From: a virus
UHGV virus genome: UHGV-0267677
Direction: 5' to 3' (one strand)
DNA length: 12,895 nucleotides
Positions 2,280 to 12,631 of the stretch are shown piece by piece. The stretch's first letter is position 1. Each line of letters opens with the position of its first letter. The position numbers and the translations under genes were made by a program. The notes under the pieces are model-generated. The model did no database searches. It was given only the letters and a program-made list of their open reading frames with translations, and was not told the DNA's origin.

Positions 2280-2945
2280 ATGAAAATCATACAGTTACAA
2301 ATGGTATTTTTTTACGATTCATCAACGACTGTCGATTTCGATGGAATGTCGTATTTTATTAGGCAAACTTTTAAAAAGAAGGCAGGTATTGAATTAACAA
2401 ACAATATGATGTTGGGCGTTTTACCTATGGATACCCCACCAGAGATTCCTCGTCTCCAATTGTTTTCTATAGATAATAAATTTAGAGTTCAATGCTCACT
2501 GCAGAGATGTGATTTGTTTTTTGAACGTATGGATTCTGAGCAAGAGGTAGACTTACATTTGTTTCAAGAAGTTTTCGATAGTGTGGTTGATATCCATAAA
2601 GAACTCAATAAGGATATTATCAGAATAGGCTTGGTGGCCGTTAAGGCGGAATTAAACAACAACCCAAACAAAGAGATTGTTAAAAACTATCTTAGTAACA
2701 ACATGCAGAATGATAGCGAAATAATTGAAGATATTAATTTAATGTATAATAAAAAATTCGAGTTTGAGCAGTCCATATTTAATTGTCATTTGTCGATTAT
2801 GTCAGGATATGATCTTGTCAGAGAACAACCAATGCTAGTGAAACAGATCGATGTGAATACAATCGAGAGTTTTATATTTAAAGATAAATATACCGCAGAA
2901 AAAACAAAAAAAGCCTTTTTAAGTAAAGTGAATGAAATTCAGTAA
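2280..2945 (+). CDS. Hypothetical protein, cargo gene 1 of the AT-rich island (no recognisable motif; start uncertain)
   Basis: 221-aa ORF in a strongly AT-rich block with a Lys/Asn/Ile-rich composition. ATG 2280 has poor SD spacing (AGGA abuts the ATG), so a downstream in-frame start is possible. Ends TAA 2943-2945, 14 nt before gene 2. No antisense ORF of comparable quality. Confidence 0.55.
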   Translation: MKIIQLQMVFFYDSSTTVDFDGMSYFIRQTFKKKAGIELTNNMMLGVLPMDTPPEIPRLQLFSIDNKFRVQCSLQRCDLFFERMDSEQEVDLHLFQEVFDSVVDIHKELNKDIIRIGLVAVKAELNNNPNKEIVKNYLSNNMQNDSEIIEDINLMYNKKFEFEQSIFNCHLSIMSGYDLVREQPMLVKQIDVNTIESFIFKDKYTAEKTKKAFLSKVNEIQ

Positions 2946-2959
2946 TGTGAGGTGGCTGA

Positions 2960-3919
2960 ATGAATAAGGATGATAATAAAAAGGATATAAAAAGAATTGC
3001 AAATAATAATGCTATAGTCAACGATGACATGGCAAAAAGAACTGCGCATCATTCACTTTATTCTAATTCACAAGTATCGAATAGTACATCTACGTATACA
3101 GGAGGGGTACAAAAAATTAGTAATTTGCAGATAGATAATAAAACTGCAACAGCTTCAAATAAAGAGCGGGAAAGTATATCTATCAAAGACGCGGCACCAC
3201 AAAACTTAATAAAAACCTCTCTTTTTGTTAATGAAAAAGAAATGTTGCATGAAGCTATAAAATACAGTTCAAAAGCAACTGTGCCGGTGATGGATAATAC
3301 TGTCTCTAATGCCATTTTATCTAATTACTTTGTTAATAATAATTCTGAATCTACAATTTCTTTTAATAAAGAGAATGTAAAAAAATATACAAAAAGTGAT
3401 ATTGATAACATCCTCTGGAAAAATATCAATGATCAACTAACCAATTTTTCGCAAGAGTTGAATAAGAGCAAAAAGAATATTAATGATACTAAAAGAAAAA
3501 TAGGTAAGGTAATGTCTTCATTATCTCAGCAAACTGCAAAGATTGAGCAATTTGATGCAACATTATCAAATGCTGAAAAAGATATACATGAGAAAGTTAA
3601 AAGCTTTGAATCGGAAGTAATTACAGCAAGGAACTCAATGCTGGGTGTCATTGCTTTATTTGCTTCTTTCTTTACTTTCATTTCTATTTCAGTAAACGTA
3701 TTTTCTCGCGATATGTCTTTAAGCATGTCAATCTCAGTTTTGTTAGTGATATGGTCGTGCTTAATTAGCTTTATCTTTGTTTTTATGGCAGGGATTAGCA
3801 AGGGAGGAGCTTTTTTTACAAGCTCATCATTTATTAAGCATGCCATTTTTATGGTTGTGCTTTTTATTTCATCTTTCGCACTCCCTAAAGTTATTTTTAA
3901 TATCTTTGCAATTAGCTGA
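2960..3919 (+). CDS. Hypothetical membrane protein, cargo gene 2 (N/S/T-rich N-terminus, coiled-coil-like middle, three C-terminal TM helices)
   Basis: Strong SD GAGGTGG 4 nt upstream of ATG 2960. Hydrophobic segments at about aa 227-247, 255-278 and 293-317. The preceding ~75 aa (KNINDQL...KVKSFESEV) is heptad-like and charged. Confidence 0.7.
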   Translation: MNKDDNKKDIKRIANNNAIVNDDMAKRTAHHSLYSNSQVSNSTSTYTGGVQKISNLQIDNKTATASNKERESISIKDAAPQNLIKTSLFVNEKEMLHEAIKYSSKATVPVMDNTVSNAILSNYFVNNNSESTISFNKENVKKYTKSDIDNILWKNINDQLTNFSQELNKSKKNINDTKRKIGKVMSSLSQQTAKIEQFDATLSNAEKDIHEKVKSFESEVITARNSMLGVIALFASFFTFISISVNVFSRDMSLSMSISVLLVIWSCLISFIFVFMAGISKGGAFFTSSSFIKHAIFMVVLFISSFALPKVIFNIFAIS

Positions 3920-4020
3920 CTATCAGATGTTATCTTCAGTTGTTTAGGGTTGATTTAAAAGCGAATCTTAATATTTTCAAGTTTTGAATTTAGAAATAAA
4001 AAAGCCATAATATTGTCATC

Positions 4021-4148
4021 GGAGCCTAAAAAACTCCGGTGACTTCTGCGCTAAACGGGGACGTTTATGCGCACACACAATCCAAACTCTCATCTCCATT
4101 CACAGATGCAGAAATGCACCTACGATTTTTTACATTCGGTGTTTTACT
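4021..4148 (+). repeat. Direct repeat copy 1 (~125 bp, ~90% identical to copy 2), containing a conserved GGGA-loop hairpin
   Basis: ggagcctaaaaaactccggtgacttctgcgctaaacggggacgtttatgcgcaca...ccattcacagatgcagaaatgcacct.cgatttttt recurs at 5954-6078 with a few substitutions and no indels. Internal imperfect hairpin tgcgctaaacg-GGGA-cgttta(t)gcgca. Confidence 0.85.
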
Positions 4149-4550
4149 TCGACAGCCAGAATTGGGAGTCTCTATTCGTCTGGCGGCTAAAGGTGATATG
4201 GAAATCGTTATGTTTTGGCCTGAGGTAGTTGTAACTGTTGTAGCAACTATGGCTGTGATCATCATGGTGTCCATTTACTGGGGTTGACGACATGATTTAT
4301 CCGGCGCTATATTCTGTGCGTTGCCGCAAAATCGGCACACGGGATTGGCGTCCCGGGATACTACTCAACGCATACCGCGTTAAGCGGTTTTTTTGTGCGC
4401 TAAGCACGGCTATGCCCAAATTATGGTGGGCTGTGTGAGGGCTTCTTCGGAAGCGCCGGGTTTGAGTAGCCGGTTACGCCAACCTTACACAGTTCACCAC
4501 CAGTCGATTGGCGTCGTTGGTGGTGATGGTTAACCTGATGAGGTGATACT

Positions 4551-5159
4551 ATGACTACTCAATTAGCATTCCACAAAACGACGTTTACCCCGATTTGCCA
4601 CAATAACAGAATTTGGCTTACTGCCACTGAAGTTGGTTTAGCACTGGAATATGCGGACGATAAAGCAGTTCAGCGCATTTACTCTCGGCACTCAGATGAA
4701 TTCACAGATATGATGACAAGGGTGGTCAAAGTGACCACCCCTCGTGGAATGCAGGAGTCTCGAGTATTTAGCCTTCGCGGAGCCCATTTGATCGCCATGT
4801 TTGCTCGTACTCCTGTGGCCAAAGAATTCCGCCGCTGGGTTCTGGATATTCTCGATCGAGAAGTTCAACAATCCCCAATCACAAAACAATTCACTGATAA
4901 CGAACTTTGCACACTCGCCTGGTTATGGCGAGCAAGTGATACGATGTTAACCGCCTGCCAGAACGTTACGCCCCTTCTTCAGGTCGCAGAGCATCGCGAA
5001 GCAGGTAGATTCACTTCAATCGAACAAGAATATCCTCGGATACTCAACAGGGCGCGAGAAATCCTTGCCAGAGAAACGGCGCATGTAAAATTCCAACCGT
5101 GGCAGGATGATAAGTGGAGTCGTGTGTTACCATATTTCCGTCAGAATCTGTTGCAATAA
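4551..5159 (+). CDS. Bro-N domain protein (phage antirepressor/KilA-N-like DNA-binding family), C-terminal half unassigned
   Basis: SD GAGGTGA 5 nt upstream of ATG 4551. N-terminal region ...NRIWLTATEVGLALEY...RVFSLRGAHLIAMFARTPVAKEFRRWVLDIL fits the Bro-N signature I recall (...YSLIMRSRKPEAKAFRKWV...). Confidence 0.75.
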   Translation: MTTQLAFHKTTFTPICHNNRIWLTATEVGLALEYADDKAVQRIYSRHSDEFTDMMTRVVKVTTPRGMQESRVFSLRGAHLIAMFARTPVAKEFRRWVLDILDREVQQSPITKQFTDNELCTLAWLWRASDTMLTACQNVTPLLQVAEHREAGRFTSIEQEYPRILNRAREILARETAHVKFQPWQDDKWSRVLPYFRQNLLQ

Positions 5160-5178: not shown

Positions 5179-5218
5179 TGCCAGCATTCTGCGATGACGG
5201 AAGTGCTGGCATTTTTTT
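5179..5218 (+). terminator. Rho-independent terminator downstream of the Bro-N gene
   Basis: 8-bp stem tgccagca/tgctggca (5179-5186 and 5204-5211) followed by T7 (5212-5218), 20 nt after the stop codon at 5157-5159. Confidence 0.6.
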
Positions 5219-5393: not shown

Positions 5394-5903
5394 ATGATGT
5401 GGAACTTTGACAGTGCCGACTTAAGTGCAATAGCAGCAGGCATTTCTGCGTTTGGCACATTAGCCGCAGCGGGGTCGGCGCTTGCAAGTTGGTACACGTC
5501 AAAAAAAGCGCTGCAGCTACAAAATAGAGTTTACCTTTATGAGTCTTTAAAGGCTTGCGCTGAGAGAGCCAATTCATCAGCTAAAGATAAGCGCGGATCT
5601 GAATGGAGCGTTAATGATGCAGCGGATATCATCAGGTGCCTAGTACGGGCGATGGAGATCATCAAGCAGGATAGCCAGCAGAAAGAAGGTAATCAGGCAT
5701 TAATGTTGAAACAGTACTTTGTTAATCTGCTAATAATGGAACTGTACGAGGAAGTTCATAACGGTGATGCGGCTGATTCTGTTTTTAAAAGGACGGAACC
5801 TACACAAGTACTTGATAACTTATGGGGCAAATGGCAGGAGGCTATAGCTTTTTTTGATATTTGGAATTACCCAGTTGCGACTGAGGAAGACTTGGCAGAC
5901 TAA
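5394..5903 (+). CDS. Hypothetical protein with one N-terminal transmembrane/signal-anchor helix
   Basis: SD AAGGTG 5 nt upstream of ATG 5394. aa ~10-33 (LSAIAAGISAFGTLAAAGSALASWY) is hydrophobic; the remainder is soluble and acidic. Possible sigma70-like promoter TTGATT-17-GATATT at 5336-5364. Lies between the terminator and repeat copy 2. Confidence 0.6.
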   Translation: MMWNFDSADLSAIAAGISAFGTLAAAGSALASWYTSKKALQLQNRVYLYESLKACAERANSSAKDKRGSEWSVNDAADIIRCLVRAMEIIKQDSQQKEGNQALMLKQYFVNLLIMELYEEVHNGDAADSVFKRTEPTQVLDNLWGKWQEAIAFFDIWNYPVATEEDLAD

Positions 5904-5953
5904 TTTTCAGCACATTTGATTTCCAATAATCAACCAGCCATAATCATGCCATT

Positions 5954-6078
5954 GGAGCCTGAACAACTCCGGTGACTTCTGCGCTAAACGGGGACGTTTA
6001 TGCGCACATACAATCCAACCTATCTTCTCCATTCACAGATGCAGAAATGCACCTGCGATTTTTTGCATCCAGCGTTTG
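5954..6078 (+). repeat. Direct repeat copy 2, immediately upstream of the ybcN/ninB-like gene
   Basis: See copy 1; the same hairpin is preserved. The repeat ends about 20 nt before the GTG start at 6098. Confidence 0.85.
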
Positions 6079-8159: not shown

Positions 8160-9257
8160 TTAGAACTGGTAAACCAGACCTACAGCAACGATGTCATCAG
8201 TGCTTACACCGAGTGCTTTAGTGAAGTCATTTTTGTCAAGCAGGTTGATTTTGTAATCAACGAAAGTAGACATATTTTTGTTGAAGTAATAGGTTGCACC
8301 TACATCAACATATTTGACTAAGTCCTGATCGCCCCATACTCCAAGATCCTTACCTTTAGATTGCAGGTAAGCAACGGACGGACGCAGACCGAAATCGAAC
8401 TGATATTGTGCAACAGCTTCGAAGTTTTGGGCTTTATTAGCAACGAAGTGATCAGCAAATACAGTCATATTCTGGGTTTCAGAATAGGTAGTGGCCAGGT
8501 AAATGTTGTTAGCGTCATATTTCAGACCTGCGGCCCAAACTTCTGCATTTTTACCGGAAGCAAATACTTCAGGAAGAACTTTCCCTGCATTAACTTGAGT
8601 GTCGGTACGATCAGATTTCGCATAAGTTGCACCGATACCGAATCCTTCGTATTCATAGGTAGCAGAGAAACCGAAGCCATCACCGTTACCTTCAGTGTAG
8701 TTATCGAAATCGCTACGATCGTTTTTGCCTTGGTACTGAGCAGCAAAGTTCAGACCATCAACCAGACCAAAGAAGTCGTTGTTACGATAGGTTGCAACAC
8801 CAGTGGTGCGACCAGTCATGAACACATCTGTTTGGGTCCAGGTATCGCCACCGAATTCTGGCAGAACGTCAGTCCACGCACCGATGTCGTATGCTACACC
8901 GTAGTTACGGCCGTAATCGATTGAGCCGTAGTCACCGAATTTCAGGCCTGCAAATGCAAGACGGGTTTTGTCTTTGGAGGAACCTTGAGATTCAGCGCGG
9001 TTGCCTTTGAATTCATATTCCCACTGACCGAAACCAGTCAGTTGATCGTTGATTTGGGTTTCACCTTTGAAGCCAAGACGGGCATAAGTAGTATCACCAT
9101 CATCTGCATCATTAGAGGAGAAGTAGTGCTTAGCATTAACTTTCCCGTACAGATCCAGCTTGTTACTGTCTTTATTATAAATTTCAGCTGCCTGAGCAGA
9201 CATCGCCATCAGTACTGATGCAGCTACAGCAGAAATTGCCACTGTTAATTTTTTCAT
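8160..9257 (-). CDS. nmpC: Outer-membrane general porin, NmpC/Lc (OmpC/OmpF family), apparently intact
   Basis: 365 aa with signal peptide [30 protein letters not shown], the typical porin block LYGKV...[26 protein letters not shown], and C-terminal ...VGLVYQF. Sits between Q and the holin on the opposite strand, as nmpC does in DLP12. Confidence 0.95.
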
Positions 9258-10050: not shown

Positions 10051-10365
10051 ATGACTCAAAAATATGAACTGATTGTGAAAGGGATCCGCAATTTTGAGAA
10101 TAAAGTTACGGTAACTTTAGCGTTACGGGACAAAGAACGCTTTGACGGTGAAATTTTTGACCTGGACATCTCGCTGGACCGTGTTGAAGGTGCCGCGCTG
10201 GAGTTTTATGAGGCAGCAGCCAGAAGGAGCATCAGACAGGTCTTCCTGGATGTTGCTGCCGGGTTATGTGAAGGGGACGAGCTGTTGCCAGAAACGCGCC
10301 CCTGTTCAGAGGCGCGGTATACCATAAAAATTAACAGTTCTGATAACTCGATTACGGGTTGTTAG
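10051..10365 (+). CDS. Conserved hypothetical acidic protein between holin and endolysin (YdfR/DUF1327-like by position and size)
   Basis: 104 aa, starting 4 nt after the holin stop with SD GGAGAG. I recall a ~103-aa gene (ydfR) in the same position in the Qin-type lysis cassette; sequence identity was not verified. Confidence 0.7.
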   Translation: MTQKYELIVKGIRNFENKVTVTLALRDKERFDGEIFDLDISLDRVEGAALEFYEAAARRSIRQVFLDVAAGLCEGDELLPETRPCSEARYTIKINSSDNSITGC

Positions 10366-12280: not shown

Positions 12281-12631
12281 ATGCCATCACGAATCCCACG
12301 CGCCTGCCGTAAGCGTGGATGTGCAGGTACAACCACAGACAGTTCTGGTTACTGCGATAAACATCGTGGCGAAGGATGGGTACAGCATCAACGCGGACTG
12401 AGCCGCCACCAGCGTGGCTATGGCTCGAAATGGGATGCCATACGTGCGCGCATACTGAAGCGTGATAATCATCTGTGTCAGAACTGCCTGCGCAATGGGA
12501 GAGCCGTTGAAGCCAGAACTGTGGACCACATCATTCCGAAAGCTCATGGTGGCACGGATGCAGACAGTAACCTGCAGAGTCTGTGCTGGCCCTGTCATAA
12601 AGCAAAAACAGCGCGCGAACGCATCAATTGA
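12281..12631 (+). CDS. HNH homing-type endonuclease (packaging-associated)
   Basis: 116 aa with Cys pairs (CRKRGC...CDKH, CQNC, CWPCH) and the HNH core DHIIPKAHGGTDADSNLQSLCWPCH. Lies immediately upstream of the small terminase, as in HK97-like cos phages. Confidence 0.9.
   Translation: MPSRIPRACRKRGCAGTTTDSSGYCDKHRGEGWVQHQRGLSRHQRGYGSKWDAIRARILKRDNHLCQNCLRNGRAVEARTVDHIIPKAHGGTDADSNLQSLCWPCHKAKTARERIN

Follow-up and report, generated by a model that had tools for sequence, protein, structure and literature searches.

What does the reading frame at 4551–5159 of the window (the whole 12,895-nucleotide stretch of virus genome UHGV-0267677 analysed here) encode, and how is it controlled? A first-pass annotation, made from the sequence without database searches, had described a Bro-N domain joined to a C-terminal half of an unfamiliar kind. 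We found the reading frame, here called the ant-type gene, to be a genuine gene of 202 amino acids, placed as that annotation had it, on the plus strand like all features located below, with an ATG at 4551, a TAA at 5157–5159 and a Shine-Dalgarno sequence ahead of it. By its sequence, it is a member of a widespread enterobacterial prophage family in which Bro-N is joined to the C-terminal domain of the P22 antirepressor; the assignment draws on Pfam, PHROGs, an alignment to P22 Ant, an AlphaFold model and RefSeq.

The protein joins Bro-N to the P22 antirepressor C-terminal domain

Pfam identified the proposed N-terminal Bro-N domain (PF02498) at aa 17–100 (nt 4599–4850; E = 4.4e-10, 40.5 bits, gathering cut-off 25.6). 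KilA-N, which had been named for the same search, gave no Pfam match in the 202-aa protein at E ≤ 10. At that threshold there was likewise no match to Phage_pRha (PF09669), which leaves the product name ‘Rha protein’ in phage PhiR26_1 (GenBank PV340555) unsupported.

The C-terminal ~90 residues, held to match nothing known, proved to carry P22_AR_C (PF10548; aa 110–180, nt 4878–5090; E = 1.7e-17, 63.7 bits, cut-off 22.4). P22 Ant (NP_059643) consists in Pfam of P22_AR_N and P22_AR_C, the latter at residues 200–272. Direct comparison gave an alignment spanning aa 85–179 of the window protein by BLASTP (E = 7e-6, 23% identity), and hhalign aligned the C-terminal domain to Ant 205–273 (88.7% probability, E = 2.5e-6). 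The best full-length PHROG was ‘anti-repressor Ant’ (2.8e-56), and an identical RefSeq protein (WP_000211451.1) is named “P22AR C-terminal domain-containing protein”.

A fusion of Bro-N to a novel, unrecognised C-terminal domain would be in keeping with several null results. Queried by itself, the C-terminal half failed to find P22 by tblastn at E ≤ 1e-3; phrog_7640, which spans this half, is labelled ‘unknown function’; no NCBIfam model matched the 202-aa protein; and solved structures offered no match, with nothing under E 0.5 in a PDB sequence search with the protein and nothing under E 0.19 when Foldseek compared the AlphaFold model with the PDB. Since tblastn misses P22, the relationship needs profile or direct pairwise comparison. 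The Pfam match, the BLASTP and hhalign alignments to P22 Ant and the RefSeq product name refute a novel domain, and we give it almost no credence.

In the AlphaFold model, Bro-N was the best part and confidently modelled (pLDDT about 90), the C-terminal domain formed a helical hairpin (H116–146/H151–176) of moderate confidence only, and the tail (aa 178–202) was of low confidence. The best local Foldseek resemblance, to a Ski-like DHD domain (probability 0.85), was not significant and was rejected.

Bro-N is commonly taken to be a module that binds DNA. The protein could thus be a sequence-specific DNA-binding transcription regulator, repressor or activator, that acts through Bro-N and whose C-terminal domain only oligomerises, with no binding of a repressor. 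Bro-N is the best-modelled part of the protein, the predicted two-helix hairpin is a common oligomerisation element, and Bro-network proteins often regulate genes; PLE CapR, assigned to the network by domain similarity, binds DNA and represses a helper-phage capsid promoter (PMC10111431). We consider such a regulator unlikely, because the C-terminal domain is common to P22 Ant, whose activity is the protein–protein inactivation of repressors (PMC3121763; PMC3064807), because RNA leaders of the kind described below keep antirepressors in check in P1 and Gifsy-1, and because no DNA target is evident.

The family is widespread and its N-terminal region is exchanged

Homologues of the 202-aa protein formed 4195 clusters at 90% identity (E ≤ 1e-5), and the Bro-N plus P22_AR_C architecture was present in all of the best 120 of these 4195, which places the gene far beyond chance. 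Across 5426 complete E. coli genomes, the ant unit was at least 99% identical, with the gene intact, in 108; a copy of at least 80% length occurred in 135 (2.5%), and related C-terminal modules in 839 (15%). In the isolated phage PhiR26_1, the unit was 100% identical.

Otherwise near-identical alleles differed by a swapped N-terminal ~70 residues, as expected of a DNA-binding regulator if these residues set target specificity. One ant allele was found with two immunity types, that is, with CI repressors differing solely in their DNA-binding domains.

The gene occupies a cargo slot bracketed by direct repeats

As had been proposed, the slot is nin-proximal: the gene sits between replication gene P and the ybcN/nin genes. 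Adjacent cargo slots hold, by genome, PD-lambda-1/DUF4041, HEPN or AT-rich genes without known function. The ant unit and an ORF at 5394–5903 are bracketed by two copies of a 150-nt direct repeat, D1 (88% identity by alignment), the left at 3995–4144 and the right at 5928–6077, immediately before ybcN. Prophage DLP12 of E. coli K-12 carries only one D1 copy at the corresponding position, the empty site. The unit is closed by an intrinsic terminator (5180–5218), recognised from sequence and fold, in which the stem GCCAGCA...UGCUGGC is followed by A and U7; the automatic scan missed it because its loop is longer than 8 nt.

Location in a variable cargo region would also suit a host-directed toxic, exclusion or counter-defence factor that the RNA leader silences and whose purpose is not prophage induction, comparable with Kil/Eta of P4 or the growth-inhibiting Gp07 of phi11. 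P4 eta/kil are likewise under CI/C4-type RNAs (PMC10111431), and the occurrence of one allele with two immunity types agrees with such a role. Overexpression of phi11 Gp07, a Bro-like plus KilA domain protein, inhibits growth (PMC5944126), but the toxic part described there is the KilA (ANT) domain, which is absent here. Furthermore, PADLOC returned no defence-system match for the 202-aa protein or three neighbouring cargo ORFs, Gifsy-1 AnrP is itself not toxic (PMC4825925), and the sequence bears no sign of enzymatic or membrane activity. A host-directed factor is, in our judgement, quite improbable.

An isrK/C4 RNA leader precedes the gene

The best clue to the control of ant is the pair of isrK and C4 RNA genes ahead of it. 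They belong to a compact, roughly 0.93-kb unit that comprises a promoter, isrK, C4 with an embedded small ORF, ant and the terminator. The sigma-70-like promoter (4284–4313; TTGACG, 18 nt, TATATT; scan score 10/12) is the counterpart of Gifsy-1 PisrK; aligned to the Gifsy-1 leader, its −35 and −10 elements are conserved. The predicted transcription start lies near G4320, by transfer of the nucleotide numbering in PMC4825925.

The isrK sRNA (4322–4394; Rfam RF01394, 58.7 bits, gathering score 50) contains the decoy sites b1 (GAUUGGCGUC, 4343–4352) and a1 (CUACUCAA, 4361–4368) and has, in the terminator scan, an intrinsic terminator of its own (stem 4374–4388 plus a U-run); c4-a1b1 (RF03163), at 4307–4359, scored 39.6 bits, under its gathering score of 46.7. 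The C4-type antisense RNA follows at 4419–4504 (RF01695, 74.8 bits, gathering score 45, E = 1.8e-13), with a′ (UUGAGUAG, 4462–4469) in the loop of hairpin 2 and a single-stranded segment b′ (ACGCCAA, 4476–4482).

Embedded in the C4 element is a small leader ORF of 36 codons (4423–4533), recognised from the ORF list and the alignment to Gifsy-1 orf45, whose stop lies 17 nt before the ant AUG. Its start context (AUUAUGGUGGG) was invariant in six leaders; its amino-acid sequence and stop position were not conserved across them (overlapping, 20–33 nt upstream or an in-frame fusion, with 17 nt here). An alternative hairpin at 4494–4526, seen in the sequence and in the fold of 4495–4575, has a 9-bp stem of UCACCACCA with UGGUGGUGA. 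Its loop displays the target b2 (GAUUGGCGUC, 4506–4515), which was invariant across the six leaders, and it is predicted, from sequence and folding, to compete with the C4 basal stem.

The translation-initiation region of ant (4540–4562), delimited by sequence and complementarity, comprises the Shine-Dalgarno sequence GAGGUG (DNA GAGGTG, 4540–4545), the AUG (4551–4553) and the target a2 (CUACUCAA, 4555–4562), which makes up codons 2–4. In the minimum-free-energy fold, a local hairpin at 4527–4553 engages the Shine-Dalgarno sequence, together with part of the AUG, in base pairing; small ORF and ant may possibly be coupled through unfolding of this hairpin. Conserved translational coupling of the orf45 type was also considered and is not simply transferable, as the stop position varies among the six leaders.

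A tRNA scan found none, so the structured upstream region is not a tRNA. The isrK and C4 genes directly upstream of ant were absent from the first-pass annotation.

The RNA sites are complementary and co-vary

The C4 loop (4462–4469) has perfect 8-nt complementarity to both a1 and a2, and b′ is complementary to b1 at 4345–4351 and to b2 at 4508–4514. RNAduplex gave −50.7 kcal/mol for the isrK/C4 duplex (4320–4384 with 4420–4484) and −21.4 kcal/mol for the b′/b1 pairing.

Across the six leaders, the C4 loop, a1 and a2 changed together. Cognate loop matches were 4–9 nt to a1 and 6–9 nt to a2, Stx2a_WGPS6 being the weakest, and non-cognate loop/target pairs mostly reached 3–5 nt; owing to a shared ACUCAA, the window C4 loop also matches the start regions of other leaders over 6–7 nt. 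The a2 site lies at +4 to +11 here; the five other leaders have it at −22 to −9. The genes behind all six belong to the Bro-N/ORF6N/Rha/Ash domain-shuffling network, domain shuffling being reportedly the subject of a 2002 paper by Iyer, Koonin and Aravind. Genes of this network are adjoined by C4/isrK RNAs in satellites too (PMC10111431).

A putative RNA-gated antirepressor

On these comparisons of sequence, the Bro-N/P22_AR_C protein is probably an antirepressor that inactivates CI-type repressors and whose translation is gated by an isrK/C4 RNA switch. That it could act as an antirepressor had been suggested from the domain family; the suggestion agrees with the PHROG ‘anti-repressor Ant’, the P22_AR_C domain and the antirepressor-type RNA leader, and the function is best termed putative. 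In this reading, binding to a repressor, the sense in which the RNA switch works and any small-ORF coupling are inferred.

The protein would bind and inactivate CI-type lysogenic repressors in the manner of P22 Ant, and CI inactivation would promote or accelerate prophage induction. The isrK terminator would end most transcripts. In those that read through, the C4 loop a′ and segment b′ would pair with a2 and with b2, the latter 36–45 nt upstream of the ant AUG, while the local hairpin would additionally cover the Shine-Dalgarno sequence; together, C4 pairing and the hairpin would leave ant untranslated. Free isrK RNA, in which a1 and b1 are identical sites, would titrate C4 and so switch translation on. 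C4 represses in the P1 model (PMC8198154), and IsrK activates in the Gifsy-1 model (PMC4825925). The prophage type carries an S24 (self-cleaving) CI, and SOS induction therefore does not require an antirepressor.

A more speculative reading, which we hold to be doubtful, is that the unit is a self-contained, exchangeable ‘RNA-immunity plus antirepressor’ cassette, re-specified in two ways, that acts in trans on the conserved CI C-terminal domain and, instead of working for its own prophage, couples or hijacks induction across lambdoid prophages resident in the same cell. In the first re-specification, C4 loop, isrK decoy and mRNA target would have shifted jointly to a new sequence, the mRNA target moving from the Shine-Dalgarno sequence into codons 2–4; in the second, alleles would have exchanged their Bro-N half and kept a near-identical P22_AR_C half. 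A trans-acting antirepressor fits both re-specifications and the occurrence of one allele with two CIs that differ only in their DNA-binding domains.

The gene at 4551–5159 is an ordinary member of a prophage antirepressor family, annotated before this analysis, and the small-RNA control cassette that precedes it is a known one. The domain architecture (Pfam), the exact protein (RefSeq), the RNA families (Rfam) and the cassette type (literature) are all already known, and the interest first attached to the gene as an unusual one lapses with a well-known antirepressor domain in its C-terminal half. It carries little weight as a discovery; its practical value lies in annotation. The ant-type gene is best read with its isrK/C4 leader as a single unit, and ‘Bro-N/P22AR_C antirepressor-family protein’ could take the place of ‘Rha protein’ or ‘hypothetical protein’ in some phage records. 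Should the antirepressor function be borne out, such cassettes could affect spontaneous or cross-prophage induction. The co-varying loop/target triplets are a ready collection of natural variants on which the specificity of C4-type RNA immunity could be tested.

Comparison with known antirepressor systems

With P22 Ant, the window protein (202 aa, compared with 300 aa) shares a homologous C-terminal domain, aa 113–181 corresponding to Ant 205–273, both PF10548. Like P22 ant, the gene is an accessory gene outside the main immunity region under antisense-RNA control (predicted here). The N-terminal domains differ, being Bro-N here and P22_AR_N in P22, as do the controls: P22 ant is governed by Arc, Mnt and the sar antisense RNA, whereas the predicted control here is the isrK/C4 leader.

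The leader resembles the immI c4–icd–ant arrangement of P1/P7 in that its C4 is of one Rfam family with theirs and is predicted to guard an antirepressor. As in P1 immI, C4 is complementary to a1/b1 upstream and to a2/b2 downstream at the translation-initiation region. Unlike P1 immI, the window has no icd: the ant AUG comes only 46 nt after C4, the sole ORF there is the 36-codon ORF inside C4, and the target sites therefore directly flank the ant start. P1 also differs from the window in being a plasmid prophage with C1 immunity, and P1 Ant1/Ant2 probably belong to another protein family than the window protein. Specificity differences between P1 and P7, reportedly described by Citron and Schuster in 1990, are resembled by the co-varying loop and target sequences here. 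In P1, c4 RNA is required for full ant repression (PMC8198154).

Ant of Phi24B and Stx phages is alike in belonging to lambdoid E. coli phages, in its P22 Ant-like C-terminal domain and in its place in the early-right operon ahead of Q. The nin region of Stx2a_WGPS6 contains an isrK/C4 leader followed by an ORF6N antirepressor pseudogene and, separately, an ORF6N plus P22_AR_C gene preceded by a match to sRNA-Xcc1; the N-terminal domain of this copy is thus ORF6N, in place of Bro-N here. C-terminal likeness to P22 reaches 82% over the last 104 residues in Phi24B Ant, compared with 23% in the window protein. Experiments on Phi24B support a role in efficient induction: its P22_AR_C-type Ant promotes the expression of late genes once the phage is induced, and an ant deletion mutant reached 27–56% of wild type and was complemented (Fogg et al. 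2011, PMC3064807).

The leader itself is 79% identical to Gifsy-1 isrK–orf45. In both, a promoter, isrK with its terminator and then a C4-like element lie on one strand ahead of anrP or the ant-type gene; the small-ORF start codon, the b1/b2 sites and the first codons (MTTQ) correspond; isrK is extensively complementary to the downstream C4/orf45 segment; and the transcript, here a predicted one, has much the same length, about 0.9 kb. Homology of the window protein to AnrP, expected from the common leader, was rejected, as BLASTP likeness was limited to the first ~10 residues: AnrP is an ORF6N protein without Bro-N or P22_AR_C, whereas the window protein has both. In Gifsy-1, the stop of orf45 and the start of anrP overlap (AUGA), whereas the small ORF of the window stops 17 nt upstream; the a′/a1/a2 sequences differ, with a2 at the Shine-Dalgarno sequence in Gifsy-1 and in codons 2–4 here; and in Gifsy-1 the locus comes after Q and before isrJ, whereas that of the window lies upstream of ybcN and Q, without isrJ. 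In Gifsy-1, the long transcript is translationally silent, IsrK supplied in trans raised anrP translation 139-fold (Table 1B; about 140-fold in the text), and expression of AnrP induced the prophage (PMC4825925, Hershko-Shalev et al. 2016).

Domain architecture of the ant product

The gene ant (4551–5159, + strand) is an uninterrupted frame of 202 codons with a Shine-Dalgarno sequence, GAGGTG, five bases 5′ of its ATG. The first-pass annotation had placed a Bro-N protein here, and both frame and domain were borne out: Pfam located Bro-N at residues 17–100 (40.5 bits versus a curated cut-off of 25.6), while KilA-N, the other family suggested for checking, had no match in the Pfam scan of the protein. 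The C-terminal half, which the same annotation had called unrecognised, is P22_AR_C (residues 110–180; 63.7 bits versus a curated cut-off of 22.4, E = 1.7e-17). Scanned for domains, P22 Ant consists of P22_AR_N (residues 14–125) and P22_AR_C (residues 200–272). BLASTP aligned residues 85–179 of the ant product with Ant 177–271, the C-terminal domain included (E = 7e-6), and a 44-homologue profile aligned residues 113–181 with Ant 205–273 (88.7% probability). The stretch quoted as novel (…CQNVTPLLQVAEHREAGRF…ILARETAHVKF…) falls within the alignment to the P22 Ant C-terminal domain, so this half is a well-known antirepressor domain.

In PHROGs, the whole protein matched ‘anti-repressor Ant’ (phrog_245, 2.8e-56) and its C-terminal piece by itself a PHROG without a name; no NCBIfam model matched the protein. 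RefSeq holds an identical protein, WP_000211451.1, as ‘P22AR C-terminal domain-containing protein’. The isolated phage PhiR26_1 carries the same 609 bases labelled ‘Rha protein’, a label unsupported by Pfam. Thus, ant has already been annotated and belongs to a large antirepressor-type family that is known, as is the RNA control cassette in front of it. The pairing of Bro-N with P22_AR_C adds a further arrangement of familiar modules.

An AlphaFold model (44 input sequences, mean pLDDT 71.5) gave a confident Bro-N β-sheet/helix domain with blocks near pLDDT 90, a P22_AR_C two-helix hairpin of moderate confidence (residues 116–146 and 151–176) and a low-confidence tail (residues 178–202). Neither sequence search nor Foldseek (best E 0.19) found a solved relative, and the predicted fold added no mechanistic information. 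Working through Bro-N, the product might be a DNA-binding regulator, which we consider unlikely; the presence of the P22 Ant C-terminal domain argues instead for a protein that would inactivate a repressor.

An isrK–C4 leader precedes ant

Directly 5′ of ant, on the same (+) strand, lie two RNA genes that the first-pass annotation overlooked: isrK at 4322–4394 (Rfam, 58.7 bits versus a gathering score of 50) and C4 antisense RNA at 4419–4504 (74.8 bits versus 45). An Rfam match to c4-a1b1 (4307–4359) was below threshold. A promoter-like site (TTGACG, 18 nt, TATATT; 4284–4313) stands 5′ of both RNAs, isrK has an intrinsic terminator (4374–4388 plus a T-run), and a second terminator (5180–5218) closes the unit 3′ of the gene.

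Complementarity to the C4 element extends over the entire isrK RNA (RNAduplex, −50.7 kcal/mol). Segment b′ of C4 (ACGCCAA, 4476–4482) pairs with b1 in isrK (UUGGCGU, 4345–4351) and also with b2, an identical heptamer 3′ of C4 (4508–4514) located in a hairpin loop; this alternative hairpin (9 bp, 4494–4526) and the basal stem of C4 compete with each other. Segment a′, the hairpin-2 loop UUGAGUAG (4462–4469), is the perfect complement of a1 in isrK (CUACUCAA, 4361–4368) and is likewise complementary to a2 (CUACUCAA, 4555–4562), which forms codons 2–4 of ant. The minimum-free-energy fold also has a local hairpin (4527–4553) in which the Shine-Dalgarno sequence and some of the AUG are base-paired. 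The ant product would be made only once this RNA switch opens.

We aligned six leaders: those of the window, Escherichia coli 2013C-4225, Gifsy-1, Stx2a_WGPS6, phiV10 and cdtI. The b sites did not vary, and the a′ loop was different in each leader, with a1 and a2 varying along with it. Perfect matches of a loop to its own leader ran to 4–9 nt at a1 and 6–9 nt at the start region, with Stx2a_WGPS6 the weakest, versus mostly 3–5 nt for non-cognate loop–target pairs. Such co-variation is the pattern expected if the loop–target contact is functional and sets specificity, with the caveat that the window loop matches 6–7 nt of some non-cognate start regions because ACUCAA at the ORF start is common to several leaders. 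The window has a2 at +4 to +11, a position that a ribosome footprint would still cover, whereas the remaining five leaders have it at −22 to −9, on or beside the Shine-Dalgarno sequence.

Overlapping C4 is a small ORF (4423–4533) whose start is the invariant AUUAUGGUGGG (4423), as in orf45, the small leader ORF of Gifsy-1. Its stop lies 17 nt 5′ of the ant AUG without overlap, whereas orf45 overlaps the start of the antirepressor gene anrP. The end of this ORF differs between the six leaders: its stop codon may overlap the start of the antirepressor gene, precede it by 20–33 nt or be missing where the two are fused in frame; these variable ends yield database proteins of 234–249 aa starting within the leader. 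As the stop position varies and the peptide is not conserved among the six, the coupling step of Gifsy-1 orf45 is not simply transferable to the window. Two details alone set this locus apart, and only mildly: a2 falls among the codons of ant, and the small ORF does not overlap the ant start.

A conserved unit between variable neighbours

The window comes from a DLP12-like lambdoid prophage and spans its early-right and lysis region, in the order O and P (replication), cargo, ybcN, ninE, ybcO, rusA, ylcG, Q, porin (minus strand), holin, lysozyme, Rz. The ant unit and a 169-aa ORF (5394–5903) are enclosed by two copies of a 150-nt direct repeat, D1 (3995–4144 and 5928–6077; 88% identical), each with a promoter-like site and a terminator-like hairpin. 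K-12 DLP12 has a single D1 copy immediately 5′ of ybcN, an empty site, which suggests that the cassette may be gained or lost by recombination between the repeats.

The 169-aa ORF belongs to a PHROG of unknown function (phrog_1779), had no Pfam or PADLOC match and is always 3′ of the ant unit in near-identical copies; in the O157-related E. coli 2013C-4225 (3956–4752 of that locus), a HEPN-domain gene and a hypothetical gene take its place. Between P and the left D1 (2280–3919) lies a co-directional, AT-rich (27–35% GC) pair encoding 221 aa and 319 aa, the latter with a hydrophobic C-terminal third; the pair matched PHROGs of unknown function only and nothing in Pfam or PADLOC. Because the same slot carries PD-lambda-1/DUF4041 or DUF6864 genes in other prophage copies, these two uncharacterised genes may act in defence or exclusion. 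The earlier term ‘cargo slot’ is apt in that genes flanking the ant unit are replaced in other genomes; ant itself is a conserved resident rather than variable cargo.

Farther right, an intact OmpC/NmpC-type porin gene (8160–9257, − strand) lies between Q and holin, where K-12 DLP12 has an annotated IS5 transposase. A 104-aa ORF (10051–10365; PHROGs of unknown function) separates holin from lysozyme, and an HNH-motif ORF (12281–12631, + strand) lies 3′ of Rz at the right end. The lysis module is mosaic, since the 177-aa window lysozyme is unlike RrrD, which accompanies an identical copy of segment 3950–6150 in isolate AHB21.

Distribution and probable function

A homologue search of 5.8 billion protein clusters (E ≤ 1e-5) returned 4,195 clusters; all of the best 120, from Escherichia, Klebsiella, Enterobacter, Citrobacter and relatives, contain both domains. 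Among 5,426 complete E. coli genomes, 839 had a match to some of the transcription unit; a copy covering 80% or more was present in 135, and one at ≥99% identity in 108. Many more E. coli genomes contain the C-terminal half alone, at 85–92% identity. Protein alignments show the first ~70 residues exchanged between ant alleles and near-constancy from ‘RVFSLRGAHLIAMFARTPVAKEFRRWVLDILDRE’ on. An intact gene, strictly conserved across over 100 genomes and also in a viable phage, favours a repressor-inactivating role; that ant encodes a silent toxic or exclusion factor seems to us improbable, more so than a Bro-N regulator.

Inactivation of a repressor is the best-supported reading of the ant product. 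Further support comes from two systems, both studied by experiment, in which antirepressors are under a leader of this type, and from the lambdoid E. coli phage Phi24B, whose Ant is of the P22_AR_C type: its deletion cut pR′ late expression after induction to 27–56% of wild type, and the deletion was complemented (PMC3064807). Besides C2, P22 Ant acts on the repressors of phages L, lambda and 21 (PMC3121763). At four loci carrying an identical Ant allele, the accompanying repressor is CI WP_000858975.1 (three genomes) or WP_001295669.1 (a fourth). The two repressors are 82% identical, differing throughout residues 1–80 (the N-terminal DNA-binding region) and identical from 81 to the C-terminus. 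One Ant allele with two CI types, an observation from only four loci, is consistent with broad or C-terminal-domain recognition.

Comparison with known systems

The PisrK-isrK-orf45 leader of Gifsy-1 is 79% identical to that of the window over 300 bases, from promoter to first codons, and has isrK and C4 in the same order ahead of anrP. Its antirepressor AnrP is an ORF6N protein that shares only the first residues (MTTQ…) with the ant product. Experiments on Gifsy-1 showed that transcripts reading through the isrK terminator reach ~0.9 kb but are not translated; IsrK provided in trans paired with orf45/C4 and increased anrP translation 139-fold (about 140-fold in that paper's text), and AnrP led to more antQ operon transcripts and to Gifsy-1 induction (PMC4825925). 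In P1, a homologous C4 RNA is required for full repression of the c4-icd-ant antirepressor genes (PMC8198154).

The protein behind the isrK/C4 leader is interchangeable: Bro-N plus P22_AR_C in 2013C-4225, an ORF6N pseudogene in Stx2a_WGPS6 (with an ORF6N plus P22_AR_C gene further downstream), Bro-N annotated as ‘anti-immunity protein’ in phiV10, and Ash plus Rha in cdtI. Upstream of that second Stx2a_WGPS6 antirepressor gene, in the nin region (3254–3337 of that locus), a strong Rfam match to sRNA-Xcc1 (73.5 bits) stands in place of isrK/C4 and may be another type of RNA leader for ant genes. The C4 and isrK profiles also match the P4 CI and seqA RNAs, and adjoin ‘Bro network’ genes in PICI satellites; the genes behind all the leaders belong to a domain-shuffling network that includes P22 Ant (PMC10111431).
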